From a phage, in sequence record PZ871100.1: a DNA stretch of 50,975 nt. One strand, 5' to 3'. The position numbers were made by a program, and so were the translations under genes. Positions 2,091 to 43,569 of the stretch are shown one piece after another (within the stretch, counting starts at the first letter, position 1; every line of letters begins with the position of its first letter). The notes beneath the pieces are model-generated. The model was not told the origin of the DNA. It saw nothing but the letters and a program-made list of their open reading frames with translations, and searched no databases.

Positions 2091-2120
2091 CACGAATCGA
2101 CAAACCAATATATAATCAAA

Positions 2121-2143
2121 GGCTGGTGAATCCAGCCTTTTTT
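2121..2143 (+). terminator. hairpin + T-run between terminase and portal
   Basis: GGCTGG tgaa TCCAGCC then TTTTTT, immediately followed by ATTGGAGG RBS. Confidence 0.5.
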
Positions 2144-4206: not shown

Positions 4207-5319
4207 ATGAAGGCAAAACAAAGATTTGATAGCGTCCAGGTTAAGGCGCATTTTGATGATAATGGCTTTTTAGTTGATCGCCCAATTGTGGCGAGAATTG
4301 GCTTGCAGGAGTACCGCACACCGTATGGAATCAGACGAGAGTTCCGTCCAGCGTCCGAGGTGTTCAAGGCTGATTCCCTTGCTACTTTCGCAGGTAAGCC
4401 GATCACTATCGGTCACGTCACAGTGACGCCAGATAATGCGGATCAGGTTGTTGTTGGTTCATGCGCTGGCGCTGGTGTTCCAAATGGGATTGGCGTTGAA
4501 GTTCCGTTAAGCATTTACTCAAAGCGAGCAATTGAGAGCGCAAAAAAGAAAGATACGGCTGAAATTTCAGTTGGTTACACATCAATTGATATTGATAAAC
4601 CAGGATGGGGCAACAATAAAACTGGTGATTACTTGTTTGAAGAAGACCTTAATGAAGACTGGAAGCCTGATTCTCCTGATTGGGTTAAATTTGACGCCAT
4701 TCAGACGAATATTCGTGTCAACCACATTGCGCTTGTCTTTCGTGGTCGTGCTGGCATTGCCAAATTAAATCTTGATAGTGAACAAGATTTTCCGTATAGT
4801 GACGAGGTTCTAAATGACAAAGGAGATGAGGAAATGACAGTAAAAATTAAACTTGATGGCGCGGTAGAATTTGATGTTCCAAAGGCCGTTGCTGATCATA
4901 TTGAGGCGTTAAAGGCAGATGCAAAAGCTGCAACCGAAAAAGCTGATGGCCTTGAGGCCGAGCGCGACGCCCTGAAAACTAAAGTCGATGGCATTCCGGC
5001 GCAGATTGCAGAAGCTGTTAAGAAGGCAAAGACTGACGCAGAAGAACATGCCAAGCTGGTTGCAGATGCAACTGAAATTGGCATCAAGTGTGACGGCTTG
5101 GACGCTAAAGCGATCAAGGTTGCTTACGTCAAAGAAGTCACTGGCGCTGATATTTCAGAAAAAGCCGATGCATATATTGAAACAGCTTTTGACCTTGCGA
5201 AGCAGTCTGATAAAATGGCGGCGCAGCGTAAATCTGTTAAGGGCGATTCTTTCGAATCTGGCAAGAGTGAAAAAACCGACTCCCTTGATCCTACTGCGCG
5301 TTTGAAAAAACTTAAATAA
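4207..5319 (+). CDS. capsid scaffolding protein (possible N-terminal protease-like domain, C-terminal Ala/Lys/Glu coiled coil)
   Basis: 370 aa; C-terminal half is low-complexity helical AKxAxEKA repeats typical of scaffolds; located before capsid genes. Confidence 0.5.
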   Translation: MKAKQRFDSVQVKAHFDDNGFLVDRPIVARIGLQEYRTPYGIRREFRPASEVFKADSLATFAGKPITIGHVTVTPDNADQVVVGSCAGAGVPNGIGVEVPLSIYSKRAIESAKKKDTAEISVGYTSIDIDKPGWGNNKTGDYLFEEDLNEDWKPDSPDWVKFDAIQTNIRVNHIALVFRGRAGIAKLNLDSEQDFPYSDEVLNDKGDEEMTVKIKLDGAVEFDVPKAVADHIEALKADAKAATEKADGLEAERDALKTKVDGIPAQIAEAVKKAKTDAEEHAKLVADATEIGIKCDGLDAKAIKVAYVKEVTGADISEKADAYIETAFDLAKQSDKMAAQRKSVKGDSFESGKSEKTDSLDPTARLKKLK

Positions 5320-5889: not shown

Positions 5890-6324
5890 ATGAGTGATTA
5901 TTCAGTCATTGTTGGCGCTGAGTCGCCAGGGTGCATGGTCGATTCTTCAATAATGGTGATTAACGGATCTTTCGTGTGCGGAGATGAATTTATTGCGCCA
6001 GGTAAGATTGTGCGACTATCACATATAATAAATGGATACAAAATAGCAAGTGTTAATGGGGATCTCGTTATTGGCGTGGCAGTAAGGCCGCCGGACTCGT
6101 GCATATATGAGGAGGGCGATCCAGTTAATGTGGTTAGTCGGGGTAATGTTTGGTGCTTAACTTCTGAGAGCGAAGCGCCAGAATATGGAGATAAAGTATT
6201 TGTAACGCAAGATGGAGATGTGGCATACAGTGAAGGCGACTTGCTGATTGGTTGGATCTTTACTGGCGAACATGTAAAGGTTGATAATGATTCATATATT
6301 GTCGGGGTAAGCATTGACCCATAA
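5890..6324 (+). CDS. capsid-associated protein, paralog B
   Basis: ORF trimmed to ATG 5890 (GGAG upstream, after terminator hairpin); paralog of 5332..5844. Confidence 0.4.
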   Translation: MSDYSVIVGAESPGCMVDSSIMVINGSFVCGDEFIAPGKIVRLSHIINGYKIASVNGDLVIGVAVRPPDSCIYEEGDPVNVVSRGNVWCLTSESEAPEYGDKVFVTQDGDVAYSEGDLLIGWIFTGEHVKVDNDSYIVGVSIDP

Positions 6325-6407
6325 CACAAAATTATGTTGCACGTTTAACAAAAAATGCTATCATTGGTCCGTTACATACTAACGACCTTTATATATGGAG
6401 GAAGAAA

Positions 6408-7382
6408 ATGGAAAAAGAAAAATTTGATCAGCTAGATGCGGATATTGTTTCTAGCTATCTGGCTACTCGCGGCGTTAAAGGTGATGCGTCCGATATGGGT
6501 ATTTGGGCCGCTCAAGAACTGCATAAGATTCGCTCTAATGCTTACGAGAAAGAATATCCGGCAGGTTCAGCGCTTCGTGTATTCCCTGTAACTAATGAGC
6601 TTTCTGATACTGATAAGACTTTTGAATATCAGATGTTTGACAAAGTTGGTTACGCAAAAATTATCGCTGATTACACCGACGACCTGCCGACCGTTGACGC
6701 GCTGATGTCAAGCGAATTTGGTAAAGTATTCCGCCTGGGTAACGCGTTCTTGATCTCCATTGACGAAATCAAGGCTGGTCAGCGTACTGGTAAGAGCCTT
6801 TCCACTCGCAAGGCAAACGCAGCGCAAAACGCTCATGATCAGGAAGTTAACCGCCTGGTGTTTAAGGGTTCAAAGCCGCATAAGATTCTTTCGGTATTTG
6901 AACACCCTAACCTGACAAAGATCGTGTCAACTGGCTGGTTAAGTGCTGATGAAAACACTAAGTTCCCGCAGGCAGCATCTGATGAACTGGAAAAGGCTAT
7001 TGAAACCATTCAGACCATCACCAATGGTCAGCACCGGGCAACCAATATCTTGATTCCGCCGTCTATGCGCAAGGTTCTTTCCGTTCGAATGGAAAACACC
7101 ACTGAAAGTTATCTGGAATACTTCCAGAAACAAAACAGCGGAATCACCATCGACTCAATCGCAGAGCTTGAGGATATTGATGGCACTGGAACGAAAGGTT
7201 GCCTGGTATATGAAAAAGACCCGATGAACATGTCGATCGAAATTCCAGAAGCATTTAACATGCTTCCGGCGCAACCAAAAGATCTGCATTTCAAAGTTCC
7301 GTGCACTTCAAAATGTACTGGCCTGACGATTTACCGTCCGTTTACGCTAGTACTTATTACTGGCTTGAAAAAATCAGGTTAA
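6408..7382 (+). CDS. major capsid protein (putative)
   Basis: 324 aa, GGAGG RBS, followed by strong terminator hairpin; size and position consistent with HK97-fold MCP. Confidence 0.65.
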   Translation: MEKEKFDQLDADIVSSYLATRGVKGDASDMGIWAAQELHKIRSNAYEKEYPAGSALRVFPVTNELSDTDKTFEYQMFDKVGYAKIIADYTDDLPTVDALMSSEFGKVFRLGNAFLISIDEIKAGQRTGKSLSTRKANAAQNAHDQEVNRLVFKGSKPHKILSVFEHPNLTKIVSTGWLSADENTKFPQAASDELEKAIETIQTITNGQHRATNILIPPSMRKVLSVRMENTTESYLEYFQKQNSGITIDSIAELEDIDGTGTKGCLVYEKDPMNMSIEIPEAFNMLPAQPKDLHFKVPCTSKCTGLTIYRPFTLVLITGLKKSG

Positions 7383-7395
7383 TCGTATAACATTG

Positions 7396-7424
7396 GGGAA
7401 TCCTTAACTGGATTCCCTTTTTTA
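7396..7424 (+). terminator. rho-independent terminator after capsid gene
   Basis: GGGAATCC ttaact GGATTCCC then TTTTTT, then ATTGGAGG RBS. Confidence 0.65.
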
Positions 7425-7438
7425 TTGGAGGTTATGAA

Positions 7439-7711
7439 ATGGCTAAAGAAAAAACTGTAACGCTAAAGGTTTCCGGCGTGTGCCTTATCATTGTTGATGG
7501 TGAGCATTATCATCCAGGCAAAGAGTTTGACGTAGAAGAATCAAAATTGAAAACAAGCGCGTTTGAATATCTAATTGCAAAAGGCGATCTGGAGGTTAAA
7601 GACAACTCCGCATTGAACGAAGAAATCAAACAGAGCGCAGCAAGCAAACGTAAAAAAGACCCACGAGAGGGCAAGAGCAAAGCCGAACTTGAAGACGGCG
7701 GCATCTATTAA
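7439..7711 (+). CDS. hypothetical structural-module protein
   Basis: 90-aa ORF between terminator hairpins, RBS GGAGG. Confidence 0.4.
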   Translation: MAKEKTVTLKVSGVCLIIVDGEHYHPGKEFDVEESKLKTSAFEYLIAKGDLEVKDNSALNEEIKQSAASKRKKDPREGKSKAELEDGGIY

Positions 7712-7758
7712 TAAAGAGGGCGCTATAAGCGCCCTTTGTCATATCTGGAGGAAACACA

Positions 7759-8175
7759 ATGGTTGATGAATTTTTCACTGACGCAGAAATCACGCAGCAA
7801 ATCGTGAAATTAGCTCCACCGATGAAGCAGATTGATCCAGATTTAATGGTGGCATGGATTGGGCTTGCAAAGGAATTTGTTTGCAAGAAGCGGTTTAAAG
7901 AATCATATCCCAAAGCGGTTGCTCTTTATACGTTGCACCTTATGACGCTTGATGGAGCGATGAAACAGGAAGGGGAAAGCGTAGATAGTTACTCGCGGCG
8001 CGTGGCGTCATTTTCCCTGACTGGTGAATTTAGTCAGACATTTGATCGTGTGTCCGGCGATTCAAGCGGAAAAGAGATAAGGCAAACTCCGTGGGGTAAA
8101 ATGTATGAAACGTTAAATCGCAAAAAAGGCGGCGGATTTGGTCTTGTTACTGGATTTAGGAGACGTTGCAAATGA
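7759..8175 (+). CDS. head-tail connector/adaptor protein (putative)
   Basis: 138 aa, RBS GGAGG, position between capsid and tail genes. Confidence 0.4.
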
Positions 8176-8543
8176 ACTATAACGAGATCGCAAGAATGGC
8201 AACCGAAGGAATTAACTTCTTTAGTGATGGCAACGGTGAGTTTAAGTGCATAACGCAGCGTGGAAGCGTTGAAATCATCGGAGGCGAAGAAGTAGAAAAG
8301 CCAGAGATCAGTGTAATGATTAAGGGTTTAATTCGCTCCCCAAAAGTCCGCGAGATTGACGGCGAGACAATACGAGTAACCGATAAGTTGGGAGTTTTTA
8401 ACAATAAAGTTGAAATTAAGAACGGGTATCATATTGATGTTGATGGTGAATTATATGTTGTAGTTGAAGCAAGACCAATCAGACAAACCAATGTCACTGT
8501 TGCTTATCGGCCTATTTTGAGAAGGATTTCTGTACATGGCTAA
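8172..8543 (+). CDS. head closure / head-tail joining protein (putative)
   Basis: ATG 8172 overlaps upstream stop (ATGA); AGGAG RBS; position-based. Confidence 0.4.
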
Positions 8544-8979
8544 AAACTACACGATAAGGGAATTTCACGGCAACATTGATGCGTGGATAAACGCCGTTGA
8601 TAATGGCCTGAAAGATTGCGTGGAGTTGTTCGCCGAAAAAGTGCATACAGATCTTGTTAAGCGTTCTCCGGTAGATACTGGTCGTTACCGTGGAAACTGG
8701 CAGGTAACAGCAAATAAGCCGCCATTGTATGCGCTTAACCAGTACGATAAGCACGGCGACAAAACGATAGCGGAAGGTAAGCGAGCTATATACGCAATAT
8801 TGAGAGGTGGCGGAGCGGTAAGGGCCATTTATTTTTCAAATATGCTTATTTACGCTAACGCGCTTGAATACGGTCATTCAAAACAAGCGCCAGCGGGTGT
8901 GCTTGGTATTGTTGCCGTGAAGTTGCGTTCATATATGGCTGAAGCAATAAAAGAGTCGAGGGCTAAAAATGCACTATGA
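8536..8979 (+). CDS. tail completion/neck protein (HK97 gp10-like, putative)
   Basis: 147 aa; overlapping start; TGRYRGNW motif region; position-based. Confidence 0.4.
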   Translation: MAKNYTIREFHGNIDAWINAVDNGLKDCVELFAEKVHTDLVKRSPVDTGRYRGNWQVTANKPPLYALNQYDKHGDKTIAEGKRAIYAILRGGGAVRAIYFSNMLIYANALEYGHSKQAPAGVLGIVAVKLRSYMAEAIKESRAKNAL

Positions 8980-9367
8980 ATTAATGCTATCGGCGCGTAA
9001 GGCGCTGGCGACTGAATACGAGAGCAGATTCACGATCGCTTATGAAAACGTAGAGTTTACGCCACCTGGTGACGGTTCGCCGTGGTTAAAGTTTGACTAT
9101 GCCGAAGTTGACACAGAATACTTGTCATTGGATCGAAAATGCGTTTCATATATCGGAATGATTCAGGTTGGCATTGTGTTTCCACCAGGTTACGGAACTG
9201 ACAGGCCGCGCGTTCTAGCTAAAGAGATTGCGCAATTCTTTTACGATGGTAAAATGCTGGAGCATGGTTATATATATGAGGGTGCAAGAGTTCACAAGCC
9301 GCTCAAGAGTGAAAGCGGTTGGATTCTCCCAATAAGGTTTTATGTTCGAATTGAAACAAAGGAGTAA
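8969..9367 (+). CDS. tail terminator protein (putative)
   Basis: 132 aa immediately upstream of major tail protein. Confidence 0.35.
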   Translation: MHYELMLSARKALATEYESRFTIAYENVEFTPPGDGSPWLKFDYAEVDTEYLSLDRKCVSYIGMIQVGIVFPPGYGTDRPRVLAKEIAQFFYDGKMLEHGYIYEGARVHKPLKSESGWILPIRFYVRIETKE

Positions 9368-9372
9368 AAATT

Positions 9373-10035
9373 ATGCATTTACCAAATGGATCGCAAATTT
9401 TCGTTGAGAGCAATCGCGGAAGCGCTATTGAGGCAACGGCAGTATCAAACGCTAAAGATCCTGTATTCACCGTTGCATCTGGCGGTACTGCGTACAAGAA
9501 AGGTGATTATGTTATCATCACTGCGTCCTCCTGGGGCAAGCTGATTGATCGTGTTATGCGTGTAAAGGCTAACGGTGAAGAAACAAGCGTGACTCTTGAG
9601 GGTGTTGATACTACCGATCAGAACGTGTTCCCGACTGGCGGCACTGCATCTTTTGCCAAGATTGATGCATGGACTGAGATCCCTTGCGTTCAGGATTTGT
9701 CGCAGGACGGCGGAGAACAGCAATATTACACTTATCAGTGTTTGGCGGACGACCAGGAGCAGCAGTTACCTACCTATAAGAGCGCCGTTTCTCTGACCTA
9801 CACTTTTGCGCACGAATACGATAACGCGATCTATCCGTTACTTCGTGCAGCAGACGAATCCGGTGAAGTGACCGCGCTTCGCATGTATGTACCGAAAGCG
9901 AAAGAGATGCGTTGCTGGGCTGGTGTCCTTTCGTTTAACGAGATCCCACAAACGACCGTTAACGAAATGGAAACTGTTTCCCTGTCTGTATCCCTGAAAG
10001 GTCGATTCACCTTCCTACCTTCTCAAGTAGCATAA
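9373..10035 (+). CDS. major tail protein
   Basis: 220 aa, RBS AAGGAG, followed by strong rho-independent terminator; upstream of chaperone/tape measure. Confidence 0.6.
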   Translation: MHLPNGSQIFVESNRGSAIEATAVSNAKDPVFTVASGGTAYKKGDYVIITASSWGKLIDRVMRVKANGEETSVTLEGVDTTDQNVFPTGGTASFAKIDAWTEIPCVQDLSQDGGEQQYYTYQCLADDQEQQLPTYKSAVSLTYTFAHEYDNAIYPLLRAADESGEVTALRMYVPKAKEMRCWAGVLSFNEIPQTTVNEMETVSLSVSLKGRFTFLPSQVA

Positions 10036-10042
10036 TCACAAG

Positions 10043-10064
10043 GGGCGTTGCGCCCCTTTTTTTG
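10043..10064 (+). terminator. rho-independent terminator after major tail gene
   Basis: GGGGCG ttg CGCCCC then TTTTTTT. Confidence 0.7.
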
Positions 10065-10134
10065 TTACTGTACAATCATGCTACACGATTCATAATCAAT
10101 TCTTTTAACAAAAAGTGCTATCAAGGAGAAAGAA

Positions 10135-10452
10135 ATGTCAAAAATGAAATTGACGATTGGGCCGCTTCCTGACTTTAAATTACCAGTGAAATTTGCAATG
10201 CCTAACGGAGAAGATCAAACAATTATCTTCACAGTTCGCCACCGCAAAACAAGTGAGATTCACGAGCGCTACACGTCAGATACTCCAATGAGCGATGTTG
10301 AAATGATCACCTTCCTTGCTTCTGGTTGGAATCTTGATGATGAATTTAACGAAGAAAATATTAAACAGCTTCTTGATTACTACCCAGCAACAGCAATCGG
10401 ATTAACTAGCGCATACATGAAAGCGCTTGCTGGGCAGCGAGTAAAAAACTAA
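10135..10452 (+). CDS. tail assembly chaperone (lambda gpG-like)
   Basis: 105 aa; ends at slippery heptamer A AAA AAC; followed by -1 frame ORF. Confidence 0.7.
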   Translation: MSKMKLTIGPLPDFKLPVKFAMPNGEDQTIIFTVRHRKTSEIHERYTSDTPMSDVEMITFLASGWNLDDEFNEENIKQLLDYYPATAIGLTSAYMKALAGQRVKN

Positions 10453-10763
10453 AAAGGGCGGTTTACCTGTTTTATCAGAAACCGCCGACAGATGCAGAGC
10501 TTGAGGCCGTTGGCCTTACAAGGGCAGACTATGAAGGAGAAGATCCGCCAGAGGTTATATTTGATGAAAGCATGATGCAATCATGGGATATATTTTGCGC
10601 AATGCAAACGCAATGGAGATGTTCTGGCGGTGGCGCTTACGGATTTGATTATAATGTCTTGCCTATGCTTTTTGAGATTTACAAGGTTGAGGATCGCGAG
10701 ATGGCGCTAAACGACTTGCGAATAATGGAGCAAAAAGCACTTGAAATGATGCATTCAAAATAA
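10135..10763 (+). CDS. tail assembly chaperone frameshift product (gpGT-like), -1 slip at 10443-10449
   Basis: Frame -1 is open from 10443 to the TAA at 10761-10763 (codons read out by hand); classic position upstream of tape measure. Confidence 0.6.
10443..10449 (+). other. programmed -1 ribosomal frameshift slippery site AAAAAAC
   Basis: X XXY YYZ heptamer in zero frame 2 codons before the chaperone stop. Confidence 0.6.
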
Positions 10764-10784
10764 GCGCCTACGGGCGCTTTTTTA
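10763..10784 (+). terminator. terminator-like hairpin after chaperone ORFs
   Basis: AGCGCC tacg GGCGCT then TTTTTT. Confidence 0.55.
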
Positions 10785-10802
10785 TTACCTGGAGGATTAA
10801 TA

Positions 10803-13475
10803 ATGTCAGAACAATACGCAGGTTTGACGCTTGGGGTTGACGTTTCTCAACTCAACAATGCTGTAAAGTCTTTGCAGCAATTCAAGAAGGCAAACGACGA
10901 CGCAAAGGGGAGCGTTGAGAGTTTTGTTGATTCAGAGGTTGTTGCAAGACAAAGAGCCAAACAACTGGCTGAGGAATTGGCAAATCAGAAGCAAGAATTT
11001 AAAGCAATTCAGTCGGCAATAGATCCGACAGCAAGCAAAATGGATAAGTTGCGCCAGGCTGCGACACAGCTTGATGCGCTTTGGAAAAAAGGAATTGTGC
11101 CTGATGATACATTCTTTGAGTTAGGATCAATTCTTGAGACGCAGCAAAATAAACTGATCGCAACTAAAAAGGCACTAACTGAAGAAGGCCGCGCAGCGCT
11201 TGAGGAAGCAAAAAATAAGGCAAGAGCAGAGGCTGAGGCAAGAAAGTTCATTGCGGCATTGCAGGCGCAAGCTGACGCAGCGGAAAAAACAAAATCAGAG
11301 CTTGTAGAAATGAGAGCCGCACAACTTGGAGTTAGTGCAGAGGCCGCGCCATTTATTGCAAAAATGAAGGAGCAGGAAAAACAAGCCTCAAAACTTGGCG
11401 TTTCTATGGGGCAGTACAAGCAAGCAATGGCGCAATTGCCAATGCAGATTACTGACGTTGTTACTTCTCTTGCTTCAGGTATGCCAGTATGGATGATCGC
11501 AATCCAGCAGGGCGGGCAAATCAAGGACTCATTTGGCGGTGTTGCTAACACGTTTAAAGCGCTAATGACATTTGTCACGCCTTTAAGTGTAGGAATGACG
11601 GCGCTGACTGGTGCTCTTGGTTATGCTGCATATAATGCATACAAAGCAAATGCACAACTGAAGGAGATCACAAAAACCGTTCAGGAGGCAACTGGTCTTT
11701 CTGGTGATTTTGCGGAGCGGATTGCAACTGGAATCCAGGCGCTATCTGACAAGACAGGTGAGAGCGCCGATAATCTGGCAAAGGCATACATAAGCACTAA
11801 GGATGGAGCAACCGAGGCCATACAAAAACTCGTCGATGTTGGGTTTACCTATGACGAAGCAAAGGTAAAGGTAAACGAATACAAGAATGCATCAAGTTTT
11901 GTAAGTCTCAACAATGAGATTGCTGATCACAAAAACAAGGTTCTTGAGCTTGGCGATTCGTGGTATGAAGTCTTAAAAGCGAAGAATGATTATGCTTCAC
12001 CGTCCGGCGGGCTGTTGGGGAAAGAGCTTGGTTATGTAAATCCTATGTTGCAATTTGCGAAGAACACCTATGAGGATATAGGAAAGATCGTAAAAGATGC
12101 TAATAAGGATATGGCGGAACGAGCAGCACGCATCGACAGAGAAAATCTTTCCTTAAACAGAGTTCGAGCGGCGCAAGAGGCTTTAAACAAAGCCATAGAG
12201 GATCAGAAAAATGTAGCAAGGACAGCAGACGAAGAGTTGAAAAAACGAGCATCCGAGAACGTTGAGTTCAGGAGAAAAGAGCTTGAAGAGGCGAAGAAGG
12301 CACAGCAGCAAAAGGAGAAAGTTGGCGGAGTTGTAAAAGCACCAACAGAGCAGCTTGATAAGGAGCTATATGTGCTCAAGGCGCAACTTGAAACGCTGAA
12401 AGAGCACCGAACTGTAAATGATGTTATTTCACGCCAGAGGCAATCTTTGTGGAGTATTGAAAAGCAGATCCAGATCCTGGAGGAAGCGCAAAGCAAACGT
12501 AAGCTGACAAAAGCGGAACAGGCGTTACTAAACGAGCAAAAAACAGTTCTTGCCATGGCAAAAGAAAAGGCCGAGATAGGCGATCAGATTGTTTTGCAAC
12601 AGAGAAAGAACAAGCAATACCAGGAAGGGCTTAAATTCATTCAGCAAACATCGGATGCTATTGACGCTATGAACTTGCGACAGTCTGGAGCTACAGACCT
12701 GCAAATCCAGAGAGAGCTTGAGTTGAAGAAGTTGCGAACTGATTATGTTGCTGGCGGAGGTAGTATCGACGATGAAATTTATCAGCAGATGGAAGCAAAG
12801 CTGAAGGAGTATTACGCCACTGAGGATCAGCTTAGAAATAACTGGATTGCAGGAGCAAAAAACGCATGGGAGGTTTACGGACAAGATGCAATGGATATGT
12901 ACGGCAACGTGCAAGATATTGCAAGTGAGGCGCTCAACGGTCTAACCAACCAAATGGCTACATTCCTTGCAACAGGAAAGGCAAACTTTAAGAGCTTCGC
13001 AACGTCAATCATCCAAATGATTATCCAGATGATCACGAAGATGGTTATCTTTAATGCCATATCTGGTGCGATTGGCGGTGACACTTGGACGATTGGAAGC
13101 CTTCTTAAAAATGTTGGATTTGCAACTGGTGGATACACTGGAGACGGCGGGAAGTATGAGCCAGCAGGTGTTGTTCATAAAGGCGAGTTTGTCATGACGA
13201 AGGAGGCCACGAAGCGGATCGGAGTTGGAAATCTTTACAAAATGATGCGAGGTTATGCAAATGGCGGCGTTGTTGGCGGCACTTCATACACTGGCGGCGG
13301 AGTTTCATCTGGAGCAACAAATCTTAATATTGGCGGGATCAGCGTTGATATTAACAACGGAAGCGATCCGAAAGGGTTGGAGACTGGCGTAAAAATGATT
13401 TTCACTGATATGATTAAGCGTTCCTGTACGCAGGGTGGGGAAGTTTACGAATTTGTTATGTCTAAGCGGGGGTGA
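10803..13475 (+). CDS. tail tape measure protein
   Basis: 890 aa, long coiled-coil/Ala-Lys-Glu-rich regions, C-terminal glycine-rich region; canonical position. Confidence 0.9.
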
Positions 13476-15968: not shown

Positions 15969-15993
15969 GTCGCGCGTTGCGCGGCTTTTTTTT
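15969..15993 (+). terminator. terminator-like hairpin before gpJ-like gene
   Basis: GTCGCGC gtt GCGCGGC then 8 T. Confidence 0.55.
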
Positions 15994-16038
15994 GCCCGTA
16001 TAATTCAACAAATCAAATAGCACAAAAGGTGAAAAAGC

Positions 16039-19000
16039 ATGGCTGAAAATATGATAACGGGCAGTAAGGGTGGATCATCAAAACCTTATGTGCCGAAAGA
16101 GATGGAAGATAACCTGATCTCAATCAACAAAATCAAAATCCTTCTTGCCGTTTCCGATGGTGAGTGCGATCCAGATTTCACGCTTCGCGATCTGTATCTC
16201 GATGATGTTCCGGTAATTGCAGATGATGGAACTGTTAACTATCAGGGTGTGAAAGCTGAATTTCGACCTGGAACGCAGACGCAAGATTACATCCAGGGGT
16301 TTACTGACACATCAAGCGAAGTGACGCTGGCGCGTGACATTACGACAACAAATCCTTATGTAATTTCCGTAACCAACAAAACATTATCGGCTATCAGAAT
16401 AAAAATGCTAATGCCAACAGGCATTAAGCAAGAGGATAACGGCGATCTTGTCGGCGTTAAGGTTACTTATGCTGTTGATATGGCTGTTGACGGAGACTCT
16501 TACAAAGAAGTATTGCGAGACACTATCGAAGGTAAAACGCGATCAGGTTACGACAGAAGCAGAAGGATTGACCTTCCGGCATTTAATGATCGCGTATTAC
16601 TTAGGGTTAGAAGGGTTACGGCAGACAGCACATCCTCTCGTGTTACTGATCTGATTAAACTACAAAGTTACGCTGAGGTTATTGATGCAAAATTCCGTTA
16701 TCCTCTGACTGGTCTTGTATACGTTGAATTTGACAGTGAGTTGTTCCCTAACCAGATCCCTAACATTTCAATCAAGAAGAAATGGAAGTTGATTAATGTT
16801 CCTAGCAATTACGATCCGGTAATGCGAGAGTATCACGGTTCATGGGATGGTACGTTCAAGAAAGCGTGGTCGAACAATCCGGCGTGGGTACTTTATGACA
16901 TTATCACAAACCAGCGATACGGATTAGATCAGCGAGAGCTTGGTGTACAGGTTGATAAATGGAGTCTTTACGAAGCGGCGCAATACTGCGATCAGAAAGT
17001 TCCTGGCGGGAAAGGCGGTACAGAGCCGCGTTATCTATGCGACGTTGTGATTCAAAGCCAGATTGAGGCTTATCAGCTTATTCGTGATATTTGCTCAATC
17101 TTCAGAGGCATGAGCTTTTGGAATGGAGAGAGCTTGTCAATCGTCATTGATAAGCCGCGCGATCCGTCGTACATCTTCACAAATGACAATGTTGTTGATG
17201 GTGATTTTCAGTACACAACAGCAAGTGAAAAGAGCATGTACACGCAGTGCAACGTGACGTTCGATGACGAACAAAACATGTATCAACAGGACGTAGAGGG
17301 TGTATTCGACACAGAGGCCGCATTGCGATTTGGATACAATCCTACAAGCATAACCGCGATCGGATGTACACGCAGGAGTGAGGCTAATCGGCGCGGTCGA
17401 TGGATACTAAAAACCAACTTGCGCAGCACTACGGTAAACTTTGCTACTGGACTGGAAGGCATGATCCCATCAATAGGTGATGTGATTGCTATTGCTGACA
17501 ACTTTCACAGCAGCAACCTTAAATTAAACCTATCAGGGCGCGTGATGGAAGTTTCCGGCTTGCAGGTGTTCGTTCCGTTTAAGATTGACGCGCGACCAGG
17601 TGATTTCATTATCATCAACAAGCCGGACGGAAAGCCAGTTAAGCGCACAATCTCAAAAGTAAGCGGCGACGGAAAAACCATTGAACTAAACATTGGGTTT
17701 GGGTTTGAAGTTAAACCGGATACAGTTTTTGCAATCGACCGCACTGATATTGCATTGCAGCAATACGTTGTAACGAGTATCGGCAAAGGTGATGATGATG
17801 ATGAATTTACATACTCCATCACGGCTGTTGAATATGACCCGAACAAATACGACGAGATTGATTATGGAGTAAATATTGACGACAGGCCAACTTCAATTGT
17901 CCAGCCTGACACAATGGCAGCGCCTGAAAATGTGCAAATATCCTCATACTCGCGAATTGTCCAGGGTGCAAGCGTTGAAACAATGGTTGTGTCGTGGGAT
18001 AAAGTACCTTACGCATCGCTGTATGAAATGCAATGGCGAAAAGGTGATGGCAACTGGCTGAATACACCACAGACCGCAAACAAAGAAATTGAGGTTGAAG
18101 GTATTTATTCGGGAAACTACCAGGTAAGGGTTAGATCTGTTTCTGCTTCAGGTTCTACTTCTCCGTGGTCCAGAATTGTAACAGCCTCACTGACAGGTAA
18201 GGTAGGAGAGCCAGGCGCTCCAGTTAACTTAACCGCATCCGACAATGAGGTGTTTGGCATTCGTGTTAAGTGGGGGATGCCAGAAGGGAGCGGAGACACG
18301 GCATACATTGAACTTCATCAGTCGCCAGATGGAACAGCGGAAAACTCAAGCCTGTTAACGCTGATCCCATATCCACAATATGAATACTGGCACGGTACGC
18401 TTCCGGCTGGTCATGTTGTCTGGTATAGAATCCGCAGCGTTGACAGAATCGGCAACGTTTCCGGCTGGACTGATTTTGTTAGAGGCATGGCTTCAGATGA
18501 TGTGGAGGCTGTTTTAGGTGATATTCTTGATAAGATTTTTGATACAGAAGCAGGCAAGGATCTGAAAGAGAATGCCATTGATAGCGCAAACAAAATCAAG
18601 GATCAGGCACAAAGCATCATTCAAAACGCATTGGCGAATGATGCAGACGTTAGGATTATGAGGAAGGAAAACGGAAAACGCAAAGCCGAGTTTAGACAAT
18701 CAATCCAATTGATCGCAAGTGAAACTGAAGCGCGCGTCACAGCAATGACACAACTCAAGGCTGAATTTGACGAGGAAATAACTAGCGAAGTAACGAGGCT
18801 TGATCAGGCAATTGCAACAGAATCGGAAACGCGAGCCACAGCCATTGAGGAATTGAAATCACAGATTGGAGATGATATTCAGGGGCAATTAACGAGAGTT
18901 GAGGAGGCGATTGCAAGCGAAACAGAGGCGCGCGTTTCGGCTGATACAGCATTAACAGCGAAGTTTGGAGATGTTGAATCAGCGCTGACCGAGAAACTTG

Positions 19001-27524: not shown

Positions 27525-28457
27525 TTAGAGAAGAGATTCAGGTTTATAAACCTTCCTCTCTATCCCTTGCCTGTAATTATCATTAATCGGCATCATAATT
27601 TCAAGTCCTCTTTCCTCGGCAGCAATGATCGCGTCACGATCTGTGCTCTTACAGACAACTCGCATTCTTCTGTTGCCTTTATACCTGTAAGCTACAATCT
27701 CAATGTTAGTTGCATCAAAGCAGGCCCAAACCTCTTGACCAGTTGCAAGGTGAATATGTTGCGCATCAATCCAGTCAACGCAAAGATAGATCGTCTTATC
27801 TGTGCTTCCTGTTCTCACAACCGACCCGCGCGTGTAGTCCTTTGCGAGAAAAGACCGTTTACCTTCTTCATCAATGAAAAGCACATTGCACATTTCATCA
27901 TCAATCTCATCTGAGTGTACCATGTGACAAGGTAGCGCGTGAATGTATCTACCATCTTTTACGCCGCAATCATAATGACCATCTTCAGGCGGGTATATTC
28001 CTTCATATGTGCTTAACGGCGTTCGATTAAATTTTAGTGTTTTTGACATAACGCGCTCGCAGCATTCATGGCTTGCCTGTTTACCAAACGAATAACCAGA
28101 ATCACGAGATACTCGCTTATTTGCCTTGATTCTATAGTCCTGCGGAACTTTTCCAAGAAAGCGACCCAAAATATTGATCACTTCGCTGTAAGGTTCTCCG
28201 GTTAGCTTCATGATCCAACCAATTCCAGTATCATTACCGCACACGTTGCAGATCGCACCGCCATCGCCTTTTTTATCGCCAAGTTTATCTGTCCACCTGA
28301 ATCGATCTTTTCCGCCGCAGTGGGGGCAAGATTGATGCTTGCCGTTAAAAACTTCATTTGGAAGACCGCAAATACTTTGTAGCGCCTCACGCCATAATCC
28401 TTGCATATATGGGAGAACATCTTCCTTTTGATAAACCATAAAGTTTTCGTTGTTCAT
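27525..28457 (-). CDS. DNA primase (zinc-binding CPxCGG type)
   Basis: ATG 28457 with GAGGTG RBS; CPHCGGKDRFRW...CNVCGN zinc-ribbon; followed by terminator. Confidence 0.65.
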   Translation of the reverse strand: MNNENFMVYQKEDVLPYMQGLWREALQSICGLPNEVFNGKHQSCPHCGGKDRFRWTDKLGDKKGDGGAICNVCGNDTGIGWIMKLTGEPYSEVINILGRFLGKVPQDYRIKANKRVSRDSGYSFGKQASHECCERVMSKTLKFNRTPLSTYEGIYPPEDGHYDCGVKDGRYIHALPCHMVHSDEIDDEMCNVLFIDEEGKRSFLAKDYTRGSVVRTGSTDKTIYLCVDWIDAQHIHLATGQEVWACFDATNIEIVAYRYKGNRRMRVVCKSTDRDAIIAAEERGLEIMMPINDNYRQGIERKVYKPESLL

Positions 28458-28512
28458 ATGCACCTCAAACAAAAAAGCCTGACAGATGATAACATCATGA
28501 CAGGCATTGTTT

Positions 28513-28986
28513 TTAGCAATTAGTGCTTTCAGGTTTATACAGGAATCCGCCAGGTTCATAATCTGACATTCTTACCACTCGCAACATTTCACGCTTATCA
28601 CATCTCTTTGTGAGCGGTTTTCCATTGGAATCAAATCGCAGATCTGGACGGCAGAATGAAGCGCGATAACCTTGACAGCCATACTTTTTATAATCATTGT
28701 GCACCTTTTGAGCGCCAGCGGCTGAAATCATACCGCGAACTCGCCACTGATTTACAGTTTGCTGGCTAACGTTAAGACGTTTTGCCATTGCTGACACACT
28801 TCCGTAATACTCAATAAGGATGTCAAGGCGTGCTTTTAGTCCGGCTCGCACTTCATCTTTTAAAACATAGTATCCTGTAGGGCGCTTGCGCTTCTTCTTG
28901 TCCTTGCCTCGTCTTGTTCCGTTATTGCCATTAATTGTGCGCTTGTCAATCTTTCCTGTTGATACTGCGATTCGTTGTTCTTTCAT
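28513..28986 (-). CDS. helix-turn-helix DNA-binding protein (putative regulator)
   Basis: 157 aa; basic N-terminus KDKKKRKRP; HTH-like SVSAMAKRLNVSQQTVNQW; heads the minus replication block. Confidence 0.5.
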   Translation of the reverse strand: MKEQRIAVSTGKIDKRTINGNNGTRRGKDKKKRKRPTGYYVLKDEVRAGLKARLDILIEYYGSVSAMAKRLNVSQQTVNQWRVRGMISAAGAQKVHNDYKKYGCQGYRASFCRPDLRFDSNGKPLTKRCDKREMLRVVRMSDYEPGGFLYKPESTNC

Positions 28987-28999
28987 TATTCATTCTCCA

Positions 29000-29042
29000 A
29001 TAGCATTTTTTGTTAAACGATGATTTAATGATTGTGTATTAT
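29000..29042 (+). promoter_or_regulatory. conserved-box promoter-like unit (box ATAGCATTTTTTGTTAAACG + 17 nt + TATTAT), helicase operon
   Basis: Box 29000-29019, -10-like hexamer 29037-29042; divergent from HTH gene. Confidence 0.55.
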
Positions 29043-29075
29043 ACACGCCAAATGGCATTACTCAAAGGTTTTAGA

Positions 29076-32307: not shown

Positions 32308-32565
32308 ATGCAAAAAGAAAGAAGCATTTATTTAAATGAAACTGGAAAGTGGTTGTTATTTCGCGCTATGGTATGCGATGCACTTGATAAAAACCCTAAC
32401 GTGAAAAAGATGATTGATTGCGATCCGTGGGAATTTTCAAGCGCATTAGATATGAGCTTTGAGGAGACAAAAAAACTACCGCTTGAAAAATGGAGCGAGC
32501 AAATCAGAAATGACATGCAAGAATTTGTCGATTCGTGGAATTTTCAGCACGGAATGATCCACTAA
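32308..32565 (+). CDS. hypothetical protein
   Basis: 85 aa from ATG 32308; stop TAG embedded in promoter box. Confidence 0.4.
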   Translation: MQKERSIYLNETGKWLLFRAMVCDALDKNPNVKKMIDCDPWEFSSALDMSFEETKKLPLEKWSEQIRNDMQEFVDSWNFQHGMIH

Positions 32566-32608
32566 TAGCACTTTTTGTTAAAACGCCCGACCTTGTGTCG
32601 GGCATAAT
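32565..32608 (+). promoter_or_regulatory. conserved-box promoter-like unit
   Basis: Box 32565-32584, spacer inverted repeat GCCCGAC...GTCGGGC, CATAAT 32603-32608, leader CATCAAAACGA. Confidence 0.6.
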
Positions 32609-32640
32609 TATTTCATCAAAACGAACAAGAGGAAAATAAA

Positions 32641-33150: not shown

Positions 33151-34266
33151 ATGAAGCAAATCAAAATCACAGATGAACAATTTATCAATGAGCGCAAGCA
33201 GGGAAAGACATATAAGCAGATCGCTAGTGAGTATGGCATGAACGTTCGCAGCATTGAGCGACGCGCGGCACGATTAGCAAAGCAAGGTAAAGTTACAACC
33301 ATCGGATCACCTGGTTTTGGTGTTACTGGAGAATCAAAGCTAATTGATAAAGATGGCAATGTGGTTATGACATGGATTAAGACAAGCAAAGACCGCGAAC
33401 AGTTAGAAGCATTAATGCAGGCCGCTATGGATGCATTTAGCGAAGAGGTTCCTCGACTTGATCCACAGCCAGAATCACAAAAGAATTATAGCGAGACGCT
33501 ATCACTGTATCCGATCTTTGACATGCACTTGGGCGCAATGGCGCATAAGCATGAATGCGGCGAGAATTGGGATACAGCAACAGCAGAGCGCGTAATGAAT
33601 AATTTCATTGATTATTCCATCCAGTGTGCGCCGGATAGTGAAAAAGCTGTTTTGCTGATTGGTGGTGATATGCTTCACAGCGACGGACTGGAAGCGGTGA
33701 CACCTGCAAGCGGTCACGTATTGGATCAAGATAGTAGATATGCAAAACTTGTTTATGTTGCCATCCGGTCAGTGCGTCGAGCAATTACAAAGCTGTTATC
33801 AAAACACAAAAACGTCGAGATTCAGATCATTGAAGGCAACCACGACCAAAGCGGCATGATCTGGTTGCGCGCAGCAATGGCGGCAGCATATGAGAATGAG
33901 CCACGAGTGCATGTTGATGTGTCTCCGCGAGTGGTTCATCACACACAATATGGCAAAACGTTCCTGGCATACCATCACGGGCATACTATCCGCAAACCTG
34001 AAACATTGCTAATGATGTGCGCGGCAGACTGGCGCGAAGACTTCGGCAATTCAAAAATGATGTATGCTCACGTAGGGCACTGGCATCATCAAACAGTAAC
34101 TGAAACAAGCCTGGGAATTGTTGAAGTGCATAGCACTATGGCGGCAAAAGATGCATATGCTGCGCGCGGTGGATGGCGTTCTCGTCGCCGTGCGGCTGTT
34201 ATTGTTTATGATAAAGAATACGGAGAAGTAGGGCGATTTATGCATTATCCAGAAATGGCTGGTTGA
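33151..34266 (+). CDS. HTH domain fused to calcineurin-like metallophosphoesterase
   Basis: N-terminal HTH-like KTYKQIASEYGMNVRSIERRAARL; phosphoesterase motifs DMHLG, GGDMLHSDG, EGNHDQ. Confidence 0.6.
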   Translation: MKQIKITDEQFINERKQGKTYKQIASEYGMNVRSIERRAARLAKQGKVTTIGSPGFGVTGESKLIDKDGNVVMTWIKTSKDREQLEALMQAAMDAFSEEVPRLDPQPESQKNYSETLSLYPIFDMHLGAMAHKHECGENWDTATAERVMNNFIDYSIQCAPDSEKAVLLIGGDMLHSDGLEAVTPASGHVLDQDSRYAKLVYVAIRSVRRAITKLLSKHKNVEIQIIEGNHDQSGMIWLRAAMAAAYENEPRVHVDVSPRVVHHTQYGKTFLAYHHGHTIRKPETLLMMCAADWREDFGNSKMMYAHVGHWHHQTVTETSLGIVEVHSTMAAKDAYAARGGWRSRRRAAVIVYDKEYGEVGRFMHYPEMAG

Positions 34267-34628: not shown

Positions 34629-35116
34629 TGAGTATAAAACAAAGAGTGACAGCTGCGGCTTTTGGCGTTGCTCTTGCCCTTACTTCTCCGCTACTGGAGG
34701 AAATAGAAGGAGTAAAACATAAGCCGTACAAAGATATTGCTGGGATATGGACGGTTTGCGCCGGAATAACTGGACCTGACGTAATACCAGGCAAAACGTA
34801 CACACAGAGAGAGTGCGATGCGCTACTGGCAAAGCATATCAAGATCGCAAAGGATGAAGTTGATAAACGTGTGAAGGTTGAGATTCCTGATACAATGCGC
34901 GCAGCGATGTATTCATTCACATACAATGCTGGCACTGGTGCTTTTAGAAATTCAACCATGCTTAAGCTGATTAATAACGGTCGTTATATGGAAGCGTGCA
35001 ATCAGTTATGGCGATGGACAAAATACACCAATCCAAAAACAGGAAAGAAAGAAACGTCTAAAGGACTGCGCAACCGCCGCGCGGTGGAATTTAAATATTG
35101 CATTAAGGATCTGTAA
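34628..35116 (+). CDS. endolysin (phage lysozyme, GH24-like)
   Basis: 162 aa; [26 protein letters not shown] signature region. Confidence 0.8.
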
Positions 35117-38598: not shown

Positions 38599-38629
38599 CG
38601 TTTATTTCTCCTTTCGTTTCGGTGAAATG

Positions 38630-38673
38630 ATTATGCCAGGCTTTTACACCTGGCTTTTAACAAAAAGTGCTAT
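38630..38673 (-). promoter_or_regulatory. conserved-box promoter-like unit
   Basis: Minus-strand box (plus 38654-38673), spacer inverted repeat GCCAGG...CCTGGC, CATAAT (plus 38630-38635), leader CACCGAAACGA; methyltransferase-like stop TAG in box. Confidence 0.6.
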
Positions 38674-43236: not shown

Positions 43237-43496
43237 TGACTAAGGCATTAATTGGAGTTTTGATTGCAATCGCTACCCTGACCGGATGCGAAAAGGCATC
43301 GGAATCAACGGTTGTAGCAGGCGTGGAGTCAGATTTCAAAGTCGGTCGCCTGTTCACTGTTGACGGATGCACAGCATACAGATTCTATGATAACGGTCGC
43401 GCGATCTATTACACCAATTGCAAAGGCGCAACGAATAGCACGCGCAACAGCGGAAAGTACATAATGCACCAGCAAGTCACAACAGATATTGAATAG
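43236..43496 (+). CDS. small lipoprotein (second Cor/Llp-like candidate)
   Basis: 86 aa; signal peptide and lipobox LTGC; GGAGG RBS; TAATG overlap. Confidence 0.5.
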   Translation: MTKALIGVLIAIATLTGCEKASESTVVAGVESDFKVGRLFTVDGCTAYRFYDNGRAIYYTNCKGATNSTRNSGKYIMHQQVTTDIE

Positions 43497-43536
43497 CACT
43501 TTTTGTTAAAACGCCAGGTGCGAATCCTGGCATAAT
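43493..43536 (+). promoter_or_regulatory. conserved-box promoter-like unit
   Basis: Box 43493-43512, spacer inverted repeat GCCAGG...CCTGGC, CATAAT 43531-43536, leader CATCGAAACGA. Confidence 0.6.
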
Positions 43537-43569
43537 AGCCTCATCGAAACGAGATTGAGGAAAACAAAA

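Follow-up and report, generated by a model that had tools for sequence, protein, structure and literature searches.

T1 is one of the classic phages, and T1-like phages are common both as therapy candidates and as laboratory contaminants. The phage sequence PZ871100.1, called the window here (the whole stretch analysed, 50,975 nucleotides, nt), carries a short repeated box that almost always points in the direction of the genes around it. In the structural operon, which runs on the plus strand from 1 to ~20 kb, two copies point the other way, one before the capsid gene and one before the chaperone gene. What are such copies doing among late genes? An initial annotation had reported them and suggested antisense or late-gene control; its observation is confirmed and its interpretation is partly supported below. 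From their sequences, it can be concluded with high confidence that the late-operon copies are selected regulatory DNA, and a model is proposed in which a single DNA-binding protein would activate promoters from boxes at -42 and restrain the late promoters that contain or adjoin a box.

Positions 6000-12000 of the window share 96-98% identity with Shigella phage SFP17 (98%) and with the Escherichia phages haarsle, aalborv and vojen, which identifies the window as a T1-like siphophage (Drexlerviridae, Hanrivervirus-like).

The box family

The 18-mer ATAGCAYTTTTTGTTAAA has 17 matches in the window at up to three mismatches, against 0.23 expected, and the family pattern ATAGCACNNNTTGNTAAA has 22 copies at up to two mismatches, against 0.67 in Markov shuffles. 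Only two of these 22 run against the local gene direction, at 6344-6361 and 10104-10121, the rest being co-oriented with their genes. Both are exact minus-strand matches to ATAGCAYTTTTTGTTAAA, which confirms the reverse orientation described in the initial annotation.

The family itself is already known. When phage TLS was re-annotated in 2024, this element was reported as a 21-nt direct repeat, aaATAGCACnnnTTGnTAAAA, with 18 intergenic copies that are given as transcription-directed and ~76 nt ahead of start codons, and the repeat was noted also in T1, Rtp and Rogue1 (PMC11447400). Stoperators, enhancer sites or UP elements were offered as guesses, and the function was called an open question (PMC11447400). 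Table S1 of the same paper includes, uncommented, the capsid copy (DR7, negative strand) and the gpJ copy (DR8) (PMC11447400). On DR7 the text and the table clash, as it lies on the negative strand (15044-15024) between plus-strand genes, upstream of the major head gene (PMC11447400). A role in binding a regulator may also have been proposed earlier.

Compared with the TLS consensus, the minus-strand copies at 6344 and 10104 have zero or one mismatch, the copy at 2087 has two and that at 16017 has three. All four are intergenic between called open reading frames (ORFs), the one overlap being that of the 2087 copy with the terminase stop codon. The 6344 and 10104 copies are opposed to transcription, lying on the minus strand of a plus-strand operon, and the 2087 and 16017 copies run along it. 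From the end of the box to the plus-strand ATG there are 46 nt at the capsid gene, 13 nt at the chaperone gene and 4 nt at the gpJ-like gene. The window copies thus belong to the TLS sequence family, but the reversed copies break its direction rule, and the reversed and gpJ copies its ~76-nt rule (PMC11447400). The register, inverted-repeat core and late-promoter embedding described below do not figure in the TLS paper (PMC11447400); in the accessible literature no account was found of the -42 register, of a reversed copy inside the capsid promoter or of two opposed promoters conserved together at the chaperone gene.

The stop codon of the upstream gene is often within or adjoining the box, as with the TAG of ATAGCAC that ends the large terminase ORF, and the base just 5' of the box is A in 76% of copies, often as part of TAA or TGA.

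Canonical box promoters

To define the normal arrangement, 119 boxes were collected from six genomes: the window, T1, TLS, Rtp, Rogue1 and Klebsiella phage NJR15. A -10 hexamer (A2, T6) lies 19-21 nt downstream of 102 of the 106 co-oriented boxes, at exactly 20 nt in 84 of them, while the distance profile of a random-position control was flat. G is found at -14 in 77% of these promoters and a full TGn in 41 of the 106. A conserved CA follows 7 nt past the -10 and forms the first letters of a conserved CATCGAAACGA. If the A of this CA is taken as the start, the box spans -50 to -33 and the -35 position is occupied by AAAAC.

The core of the box is an inverted repeat, TAGCA-N5-TG(C/T)TA, with asymmetric conserved bases on its flanks. 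The best-conserved block is ATAGCAC (1.6-2.0 bits), in which G4, C5 and A6 are invariant. The centre of the repeat is box position 9 and the CA start is position 51, which puts the centre at -42 relative to the predicted start, overlapping a -35 region that has no -35 hexamer. By analogy with known systems, such a layout, with its dyad-like site at -42, its extended -10 and no -35, is that of a class II activator-dependent promoter, as reckoned from that predicted start.

The segment CATCGAAACGA would be the initial transcribed sequence of box promoters in all six genomes (C in 62%, A in 78%, then an A-rich run). It sits at positions 50-60 from the start of a canonical box, for example at 32614-32624.

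Among the late-operon copies, a -10 at 20 nt is found only with the chaperone copy, and there it is on the minus strand. The other copies have a different relationship to the promoters beside them.

The capsid copy

On the plus strand the capsid gene is preceded by TTGCAC, 16 nt and TGcTATCAT, with the reversed box making up the spacer together with the TG and the TAT that opens the -10 (Table 1). The elements of a sigma-70 promoter with an extended -10 (TTGNNN, 16-18 nt, TGn, A2 and T6) were found in the window and in all 44 capsid-upstream copies. The -10 hexamers are TATCAT (18), TATTAT (15) and TATATT (11), with A2 and T6 in every one.

This arrangement is widespread. Of 14 Drexlerviridae relatives, sampled by capsid similarity, 11 have a reversed box ahead of the capsid gene; they come from the genera Tunavirus, Sertoctavirus, Tlsvirus, Warwickvirus, Hanrivervirus and Nouzillyvirus. 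In the nine with an intact box, TTG is in the same position and the -10 is complete. The box of phage 2019SD1 is one base short, giving a shorter spacer, and in K50evo17 a 1-nt insertion breaks ATAGCAC and TATCAT is kept at 17-nt spacing. NJR15 has a degenerate box and retains TTGACG-16-TATTCT; Rtp and Rogue1 have no capsid box and a sigma-70 promoter in the same place. A search of IMG/VR found the signature TTGNNN-16-TGcTATNNT in 45 contigs, once per ~50-kb contig and in 45 of 45 before a capsid homologue, at a distance of 41-60 nt and with homologue identities of 48-99%. TTG was present in every capsid-upstream copy even when the scan left it out of the required pattern.

The base that completes a reverse -10 is present in 22% of the 119 boxes generally, which is the chance level. 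The part of the box within the capsid spacer that is not read by sigma-70 is TTTAACAAAAA. The 11 spacer bases unread by sigma-70 are invariant and their flanks have diverged, which implies some constraint other than polymerase. As far as can be read from the DNA, the capsid copy is the spacer and core of the capsid gene's predicted sigma-70 promoter, a position typical of a repressor site.

Two other functions for this copy were considered and rejected. As an antisense promoter it fails, because its minus-strand hexamer is without the -7 T in seven of eight distinct sequences and its position weight matrix (PWM) score is at background. A lambda-Q-like function, with the box in the spacer serving as an antiterminator loading site, does not fit a hairpin whose T-run is not universal and a predicted start inside the 5' arm; no Q-like protein for such a function is evident.

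The ribosome-binding site (RBS) of the capsid gene, GGAGG at 6397-6401, is 35 nt from the box, with a hairpin between them, so that the box is indeed upstream of the RBS but not just upstream of it, as had first been noted. The hairpin is weak in the window (-6.6 kcal/mol, z -0.4). Its counterpart is listed as terminator T35 in TLS (PMC11447400).

A conserved TAACAYAAAA tract lies upstream of the capsid -35 (window 6318-6336, plus strand). Its minus strand has TGnTA in the extended -10 register of the reversed box (36-41 nt) without the -7 T, and the tract could be either a UP-like element of the capsid promoter or a crippled minus-strand -10. A 143-amino-acid minus-strand ORF (5898-6329) begins only 32 nt from the start of the capsid box and is antisense to a conserved plus-strand gene. 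Compared with close relatives, Shigella phage 2019SD1 has single-base homopolymer deletions at 4650-4780 and 8950-9050, with the box reading gtttaacaaaaatgctat, a terminator one base short and displaced gene starts; these differences look like sequencing error rather than biology.

The chaperone copy

The RBS of the chaperone gene, AAGGAG, begins 1 nt after the 10.1 kb box, as the initial annotation had it. A TGTAnAAT-like -10 is found right after the terminator of the major tail gene in most relatives, whether or not the reversed box is present, and the Rogue1 record has an annotated extended -10 promoter at the position of the chaperone promoter. An alternative plus-strand promoter, TGTACA-16-CATAAT (10069-10096), was rejected as CATAAT is not conserved in relatives and cTGTAnAAT is.

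The minus strand has TAGCAT at 20 nt from the 18-mer (the 18 nt noted initially had been counted from a 20-mer). A minus-strand TAnnnT at exactly 20 nt from the box is present in six of six reference phages and in 20 of 20 distinct IMG/VR sequences. In the latter it takes the form of ten different hexamers, with TGn in 16 of the 20, and the spacers between box and -10 are unrelated in sequence and invariant in length. In relatives without the chaperone box, TAnnnT is at that position in none of four. The PWM scores of these -10 elements, 4.3-7.2, fall in the top 0.6% of the background and below the canonical median of 10.9. In phage IME-JL8 the site is occupied by the other box type (GAATTGC), suggesting that the identity of the site as a box is what is kept. 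The fixed 20-nt TAnnnT, its absence without a box and the conservation of box identity together make a minus-strand box promoter at 10.1 kb well supported as a prediction from sequence. The proposal of an antisense promoter therefore stands for the 10.1 kb copy, though not for the capsid copy.

The -10 hexamers of the two opposed promoters, at 10071-10076 and 10078-10083, are one base apart, and the predicted starts, ~10071 (minus) and ~10083 (plus), are ~12 bp apart. It seems likely, therefore, that the two open complexes would overlap and that only one could form at a time.

In Rtp the place of the chaperone box is taken by a forward box promoter (16303-16380), which drives an extra gene, rtp34, inserted between the major tail and chaperone genes. 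Box sites may thus be insertion or exchange points for accessory genes.

The portal, gpJ and other late copies

The initial annotation regarded the forward copies at 2087 and 16017 as truncated. Both are present, but they are full-length degenerate boxes with two and three mismatches. The portal box ends 6 nt before TATAAT and occupies about -36 to -19 of the predicted portal promoter. The TATAAT and hairpin are kept in 12 of 12 relatives with or without a box, and phages PeterMerian and K50evo17 have perfect portal boxes, likewise 6 nt before TATAAT; in the window, the second half-site of the portal box has decayed. The gpJ box would lie at about +7 to +24 of the gpJ leader, and the same layout is found in 12 of 14 relatives.

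It had been recognised that partial matches might occur at chance frequency. This is so for the heptamer ATAGCAC, which occurs four times outside boxes against 5.5 expected, and its enrichment was accordingly rejected as support for truncated copies. It is also so for a three-mismatch match taken alone (7.2 expected), but not for the 22 full boxes. The copies at 2087 and 16017 are considered real because boxes are found again in other genera at these gene boundaries.

Further copies are found at late genes of other phages. In T1 and pSf-2 a box lies across the -10 of terS. In T1 (34902-34919) and Rtp (33762-33779) a reversed box follows the -10 of the tail-fibre promoter by 4-5 nt and directly precedes the RBS, at about -2 to +16, with no -10 on the box's own strand. 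In the window the primase and tail-fibre ORFs abut (27524/27525), which leaves no counterpart of the tail-fibre box. None of the late-operon copies, whatever its orientation, is at -42 of the late promoter; each lies within that promoter or a short way downstream of it.

Table 1 Boxes, promoter elements and associated features at the late-operon and regulator loci of the window
Feature	Position	Strand	Remarks
Degenerate G-type box ATAGCACGAATCGACAAA	2087-2104	+	2 mismatches; TAG at 2088-2090 is the stop codon of the large terminase
TATAAT (2111-2116) and terminator hairpin (2118-2140)	2111-2140	+	ahead of the portal RBS
Predicted capsid -35, TTGCAC	6337-6342	+	TTG at exactly this position in all 44 capsid-upstream copies
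Reversed box ATAGCATTTTTTGTTAAA	6344-6361	-	about -27 to -10 of the predicted capsid promoter
Extended -10, TGcTATCAT	6356-6364	+	TGCTAT is the reverse complement of box ATAGCA
Leader hairpin GGTCCGTTA...TAACGACC	6366-6387	+	between capsid promoter and RBS; arms co-vary among relatives
Intrinsic terminator after the major tail gene	10040-10058	+	
TACAAT, predicted -10 of the chaperone/tape-measure promoter	10071-10076	+	cTGTAnAAT
TAGCAT, predicted -10 of the minus-strand box promoter	10078-10083	-	predicted transcription start ~10071, back toward the terminator and major tail gene
Reversed box ATAGCACTTTTTGTTAAA	10104-10121	-	about +21 to +38 of the chaperone leader; centred at -42 of the predicted minus-strand promoter
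TATAAT, predicted promoter of the gpJ-like gene	15999-16004	+	after terminator 15971-15983
Degenerate forward box ATAGCACAAAAGGTGAAA	16017-16034	+	3 mismatches; contains the Shine-Dalgarno; ends 4 nt before ATG
Candidate box-binding protein, 157 amino acids	28513-28986	-	Cro-type helix-turn-helix at residues 54-91
Box (29000-29017) and shared -10 region (29037-29043)	29000-29043	+	

A candidate for the binding protein

The product of 28513-28986 had been named initially as a possible binder, and this choice is reasonable, given its Cro-type helix-turn-helix (HTH) and the box in the leader of its own gene. The protein has structural matches to the Xylella prophage Cro 5w8y (E 2e-5) and to 3bd1 (E 3e-4), sub-threshold matches to Pfam P22_Cro and YdaS, and a match to PHROG 2856, 'transcriptional regulator'. 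In each of the five complete relatives a homologue of it is annotated as a transcriptional regulator, and no other regulator is annotated in all five. Proteins of the Cro type bind as dimers, to operators that are pseudo-palindromic. Wietzorrek et al., describing the Rtp genome in 2006 (J Bacteriol), reportedly proposed that the homologue Rtp52 binds conserved inverted repeats upstream of genes, which we take as a lead only; such repeats would agree with the TAGCA-N5-TGCTA core, and that paper is not known to deal with reversed or late-operon copies. From its sequence, the Cro-like protein is probably the box binder.

The box beside its gene would belong to two transcription units. It is centred at about -41 of the predicted helicase promoter and would also lie at about +15 to +32 in the leader of the HTH gene, beside that gene's RBS. 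On the other strand, TTGAGT-16-TATAAT forms a near-consensus promoter for the HTH gene; its -10 overlaps that of the helicase gene (TATTATA, 29037-29043), and its -35 (29060-29065, minus strand) is within the helicase leader. The predicted starts are ~18 bp apart. This layout is conserved in T1, TLS, Rtp, Rogue1 and NJR15, and by comparison of the two loci the chaperone gene is seen to occupy the regulator gene's place in the predicted opposed-promoter module. Bidirectional promoters with -10 elements on opposite strands were reportedly described by Warman et al. in 2021 (Nature Microbiology). The present pairs are similar in that the regulator and helicase hexamers overlap and those at the chaperone gene share one short region; they differ in that the chaperone-site hexamers are adjacent, with closer starts, and have a box in one direction only.

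Proposed model

From the sequence, positions, spacing and conservation of the boxes we infer start sites, protein binding, the identity of the binder and the sign of regulation as follows. The box would be a promoter-linked operator read by one DNA-binding protein. Bound at -42, this protein would activate ~20 middle promoters. At the late-operon sites the bound protein would be unable to activate the late gene and would instead occlude or compete with RNA polymerase. Occupancy of the capsid, portal, terS and tail-fibre copies would block the promoter, and at the gpJ copy the protein would sit in the leader. At the chaperone copy polymerase would be diverted to the opposed promoter, and likewise at the regulator's own gene; when the chaperone box promoter was active, antisense or divergent RNA would be made and transcription of the chaperone and tape-measure genes would be held down. 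The outcome would be delayed or tuned expression of the structural genes. All the late-operon copies are placed in keeping with the earlier suggestion that a protein binds the box and that it takes part in late-gene control, and we give an even chance to the view that one protein both activates at -42 and restrains the late promoters.

There is precedent for such an arrangement. Class II activator phage promoters include lambda PRM, where cI acts from OR2, and those with the Mu Mor and C sites, which are centred near -43.5. The box promoters have the same dyad-like site at ~-42, recognisable -10 and lack of a -35, and a small phage HTH protein as candidate; like lambda cI, this protein would be an activator when bound at -42 and a repressor at sites that overlap a promoter core. 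Unlike lambda and Mu, the conserved flanks here are asymmetric, there are ~20 sites per genome and the phage is virulent.

Several points weigh against the model. The conserved positions A1, C7, T11, A17 and A18 are asymmetric, so the box is not a simple symmetric operator, and a perfect 5-bp inverted repeat would occur in ~2% of 18-mers by chance. The capsid -35, TTGCAC, matches at only three of six positions; for this reason the promoter was missed by a simple sigma-70 scan, which showed no enrichment overall (28 found, 33.6 expected) and was not relied on. The antisense promoter of the window's clade has no TGn and scores 4.3 against a canonical median of 10.9. The chaperone copy is missing from Tlsvirus, Nouzillyvirus and Rogunavirus and must therefore be dispensable. 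If an early activator doubled as a repressor of late promoters, some means of release would be required, and the model does not account for one. Finally, every start site is a prediction from the position of a -10, and no transcriptome, 5'-end or binding data for T1-like phages were found in the searchable literature.

A more far-reaching reading, which is tentative and rather doubtful, is that one Cro-like protein reading ~22 oriented boxes would run the whole T1-like temporal programme in three ways: by activating the middle genes for replication and recombination from -42, by holding back the structural genes from sites within late promoters (the capsid spacer, the gpJ and tail-fibre leaders and the portal core) and, at the tail chaperone and its own gene, by flipping polymerase between opposed promoters with a common -10 region. 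If true, this would answer the published question of the function of the 21-nt repeat. The repeat is in any case recast as a specific and cheaply testable model, with a fixed -42 register, an extended -10 and exceptional copies in capsid and tail promoters across genera.

Alternative explanations

The 10.1 kb copy might exist for the RNA that its minus-strand promoter would make rather than for competition at the DNA. Such an RNA would either act as a regulatory antisense to the major tail mRNA, at its 3' end, or be short and stop at the reversed terminator. The predicted promoter for it is complete and conserved. The RNA would start 13 nt before the reversed terminator hairpin, and its 72-nt 5' segment folds at -21.6 kcal/mol. 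No ORF follows: only an 8-codon frame was found after 10071, and no minus-strand genes served by the reversed copies were found. No minus-strand terminator-like site was flagged in the window behind the 10040-10058 hairpin, so an RNA ending near 10040, as initially expected, is not required, and with neither an ORF nor a flagged terminator the transcript may run antisense into the major tail gene. In T1 the tail of the reversed hairpin is U-poor, and with no flagged terminator in the window the length and target of the RNA are undefined. Moreover, the transcribed part conserves nothing beyond the plus-strand terminator and -10, and the capsid, gpJ, portal and tail-fibre copies, which have no -10 on the box strand, are left unexplained. 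A function through this RNA is therefore considered unlikely.

It is also possible that host RNA polymerase alone reads the box, as a UP-like or distal -35-like element, and that no dedicated protein exists. The reversed copies would then be an A/T-rich spacer at the capsid gene and an ordinary constitutive divergent promoter at the chaperone gene. The TTTT-N3-AAAA of the box is like a UP-element core, its TTGNTA is like a -35 hexamer, and the 41 of 106 promoters with TGn could fire unaided. UP elements were also raised by the TLS authors (PMC11447400). However, a UP element, which is read by alpha-CTD, is A/T-rich with no GC-rich core and lies at -59 to -38, whereas the box lies at -50 to -33 and its best-conserved part, ATAGCAC, contains GC. 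TTGNTA is 22 nt from the -10, too far for sigma-70, and the capsid promoter retains all 18 bases of the box in its spacer, of which TGn is the only part read by polymerase. This explanation is improbable.

The remaining alternatives are more improbable again. Stoperator-like sites, at which a repressor would block elongating polymerase according to orientation and whose reversed copies would block antisense transcription, were among the comparisons suggested for TLS (PMC11447400). Like the stoperators of mycobacteriophage L5, the boxes are numerous, asymmetric and in short intergenic spaces, nearly all in one orientation. Unlike them, they are not promoter-independent sites: 102 of 106 copies keep rigidly to the 20-nt register with an extended -10, the mark of a promoter element rather than a stoperator. 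Virulent phages would have no need for genome-wide silencing, and the late-operon copies occur in both orientations relative to transcription, so that this explanation is very hard to accept.

Hardly more credible is that the late-operon copies act as RNA, in a 5' untranslated region beside the RBS, and affect translation or stability. The chaperone, gpJ and regulator-gene copies do directly adjoin an RBS, and G4 could pair with C14 or U14 to give a 5-bp stem on the forward strand. However, the chaperone leader has no significant fold (z 0.18) and no Rfam match, forward and reversed copies would yield different RNAs, and the capsid and portal copies are upstream of the predicted start; the switch of box type in IME-JL8 also keeps the identity of the DNA box and not an RNA fold.

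That the copies are functionless relics of recombination or module shuffling, as identical 18-21 bp repeats at gene boundaries, the inserted gene behind a forward box in Rtp and the decaying portal copy might suggest, is scarcely believable when position and sequence are exact across genera whose capsid proteins are ~50% identical and whose flanks have diverged, and when the chaperone box and its minus-strand -10 are present or absent together.

Predicted promoter-terminator modules

A hairpin of -6 kcal/mol or lower is found between the box and the start in 68% of copies, compared with 22% of shuffles. After most canonical boxes it is G+C-rich and ends at or wraps the -10, for example at 32565-32620, 38600-38673 (minus strand) and 43493-43550. 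The median minimum free energy is -11 kcal/mol, against -3.8 kcal/mol in shuffles, and several of these hairpins are labelled as terminators in the T1 record. The canonical modules look like terminators with a built-in promoter, since a read-through RNA would have the whole hairpin and a locally started RNA would not. Such compact promoter/terminator modules, and the predicted polymerase-flipping switch, could serve the engineering of T1-like phages.

Similar overlaps are seen at single genes. At the primase gene (window 28455-28529, minus strand) the -10, TATCAT, is within the terminator hairpin, and in the portal (2111-2140, plus strand) and capsid (6359-6387, plus strand) promoters the predicted start is within the 5' arm of the downstream hairpin. 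In all three cases locally started transcripts would thus escape a terminator that stops those from upstream.

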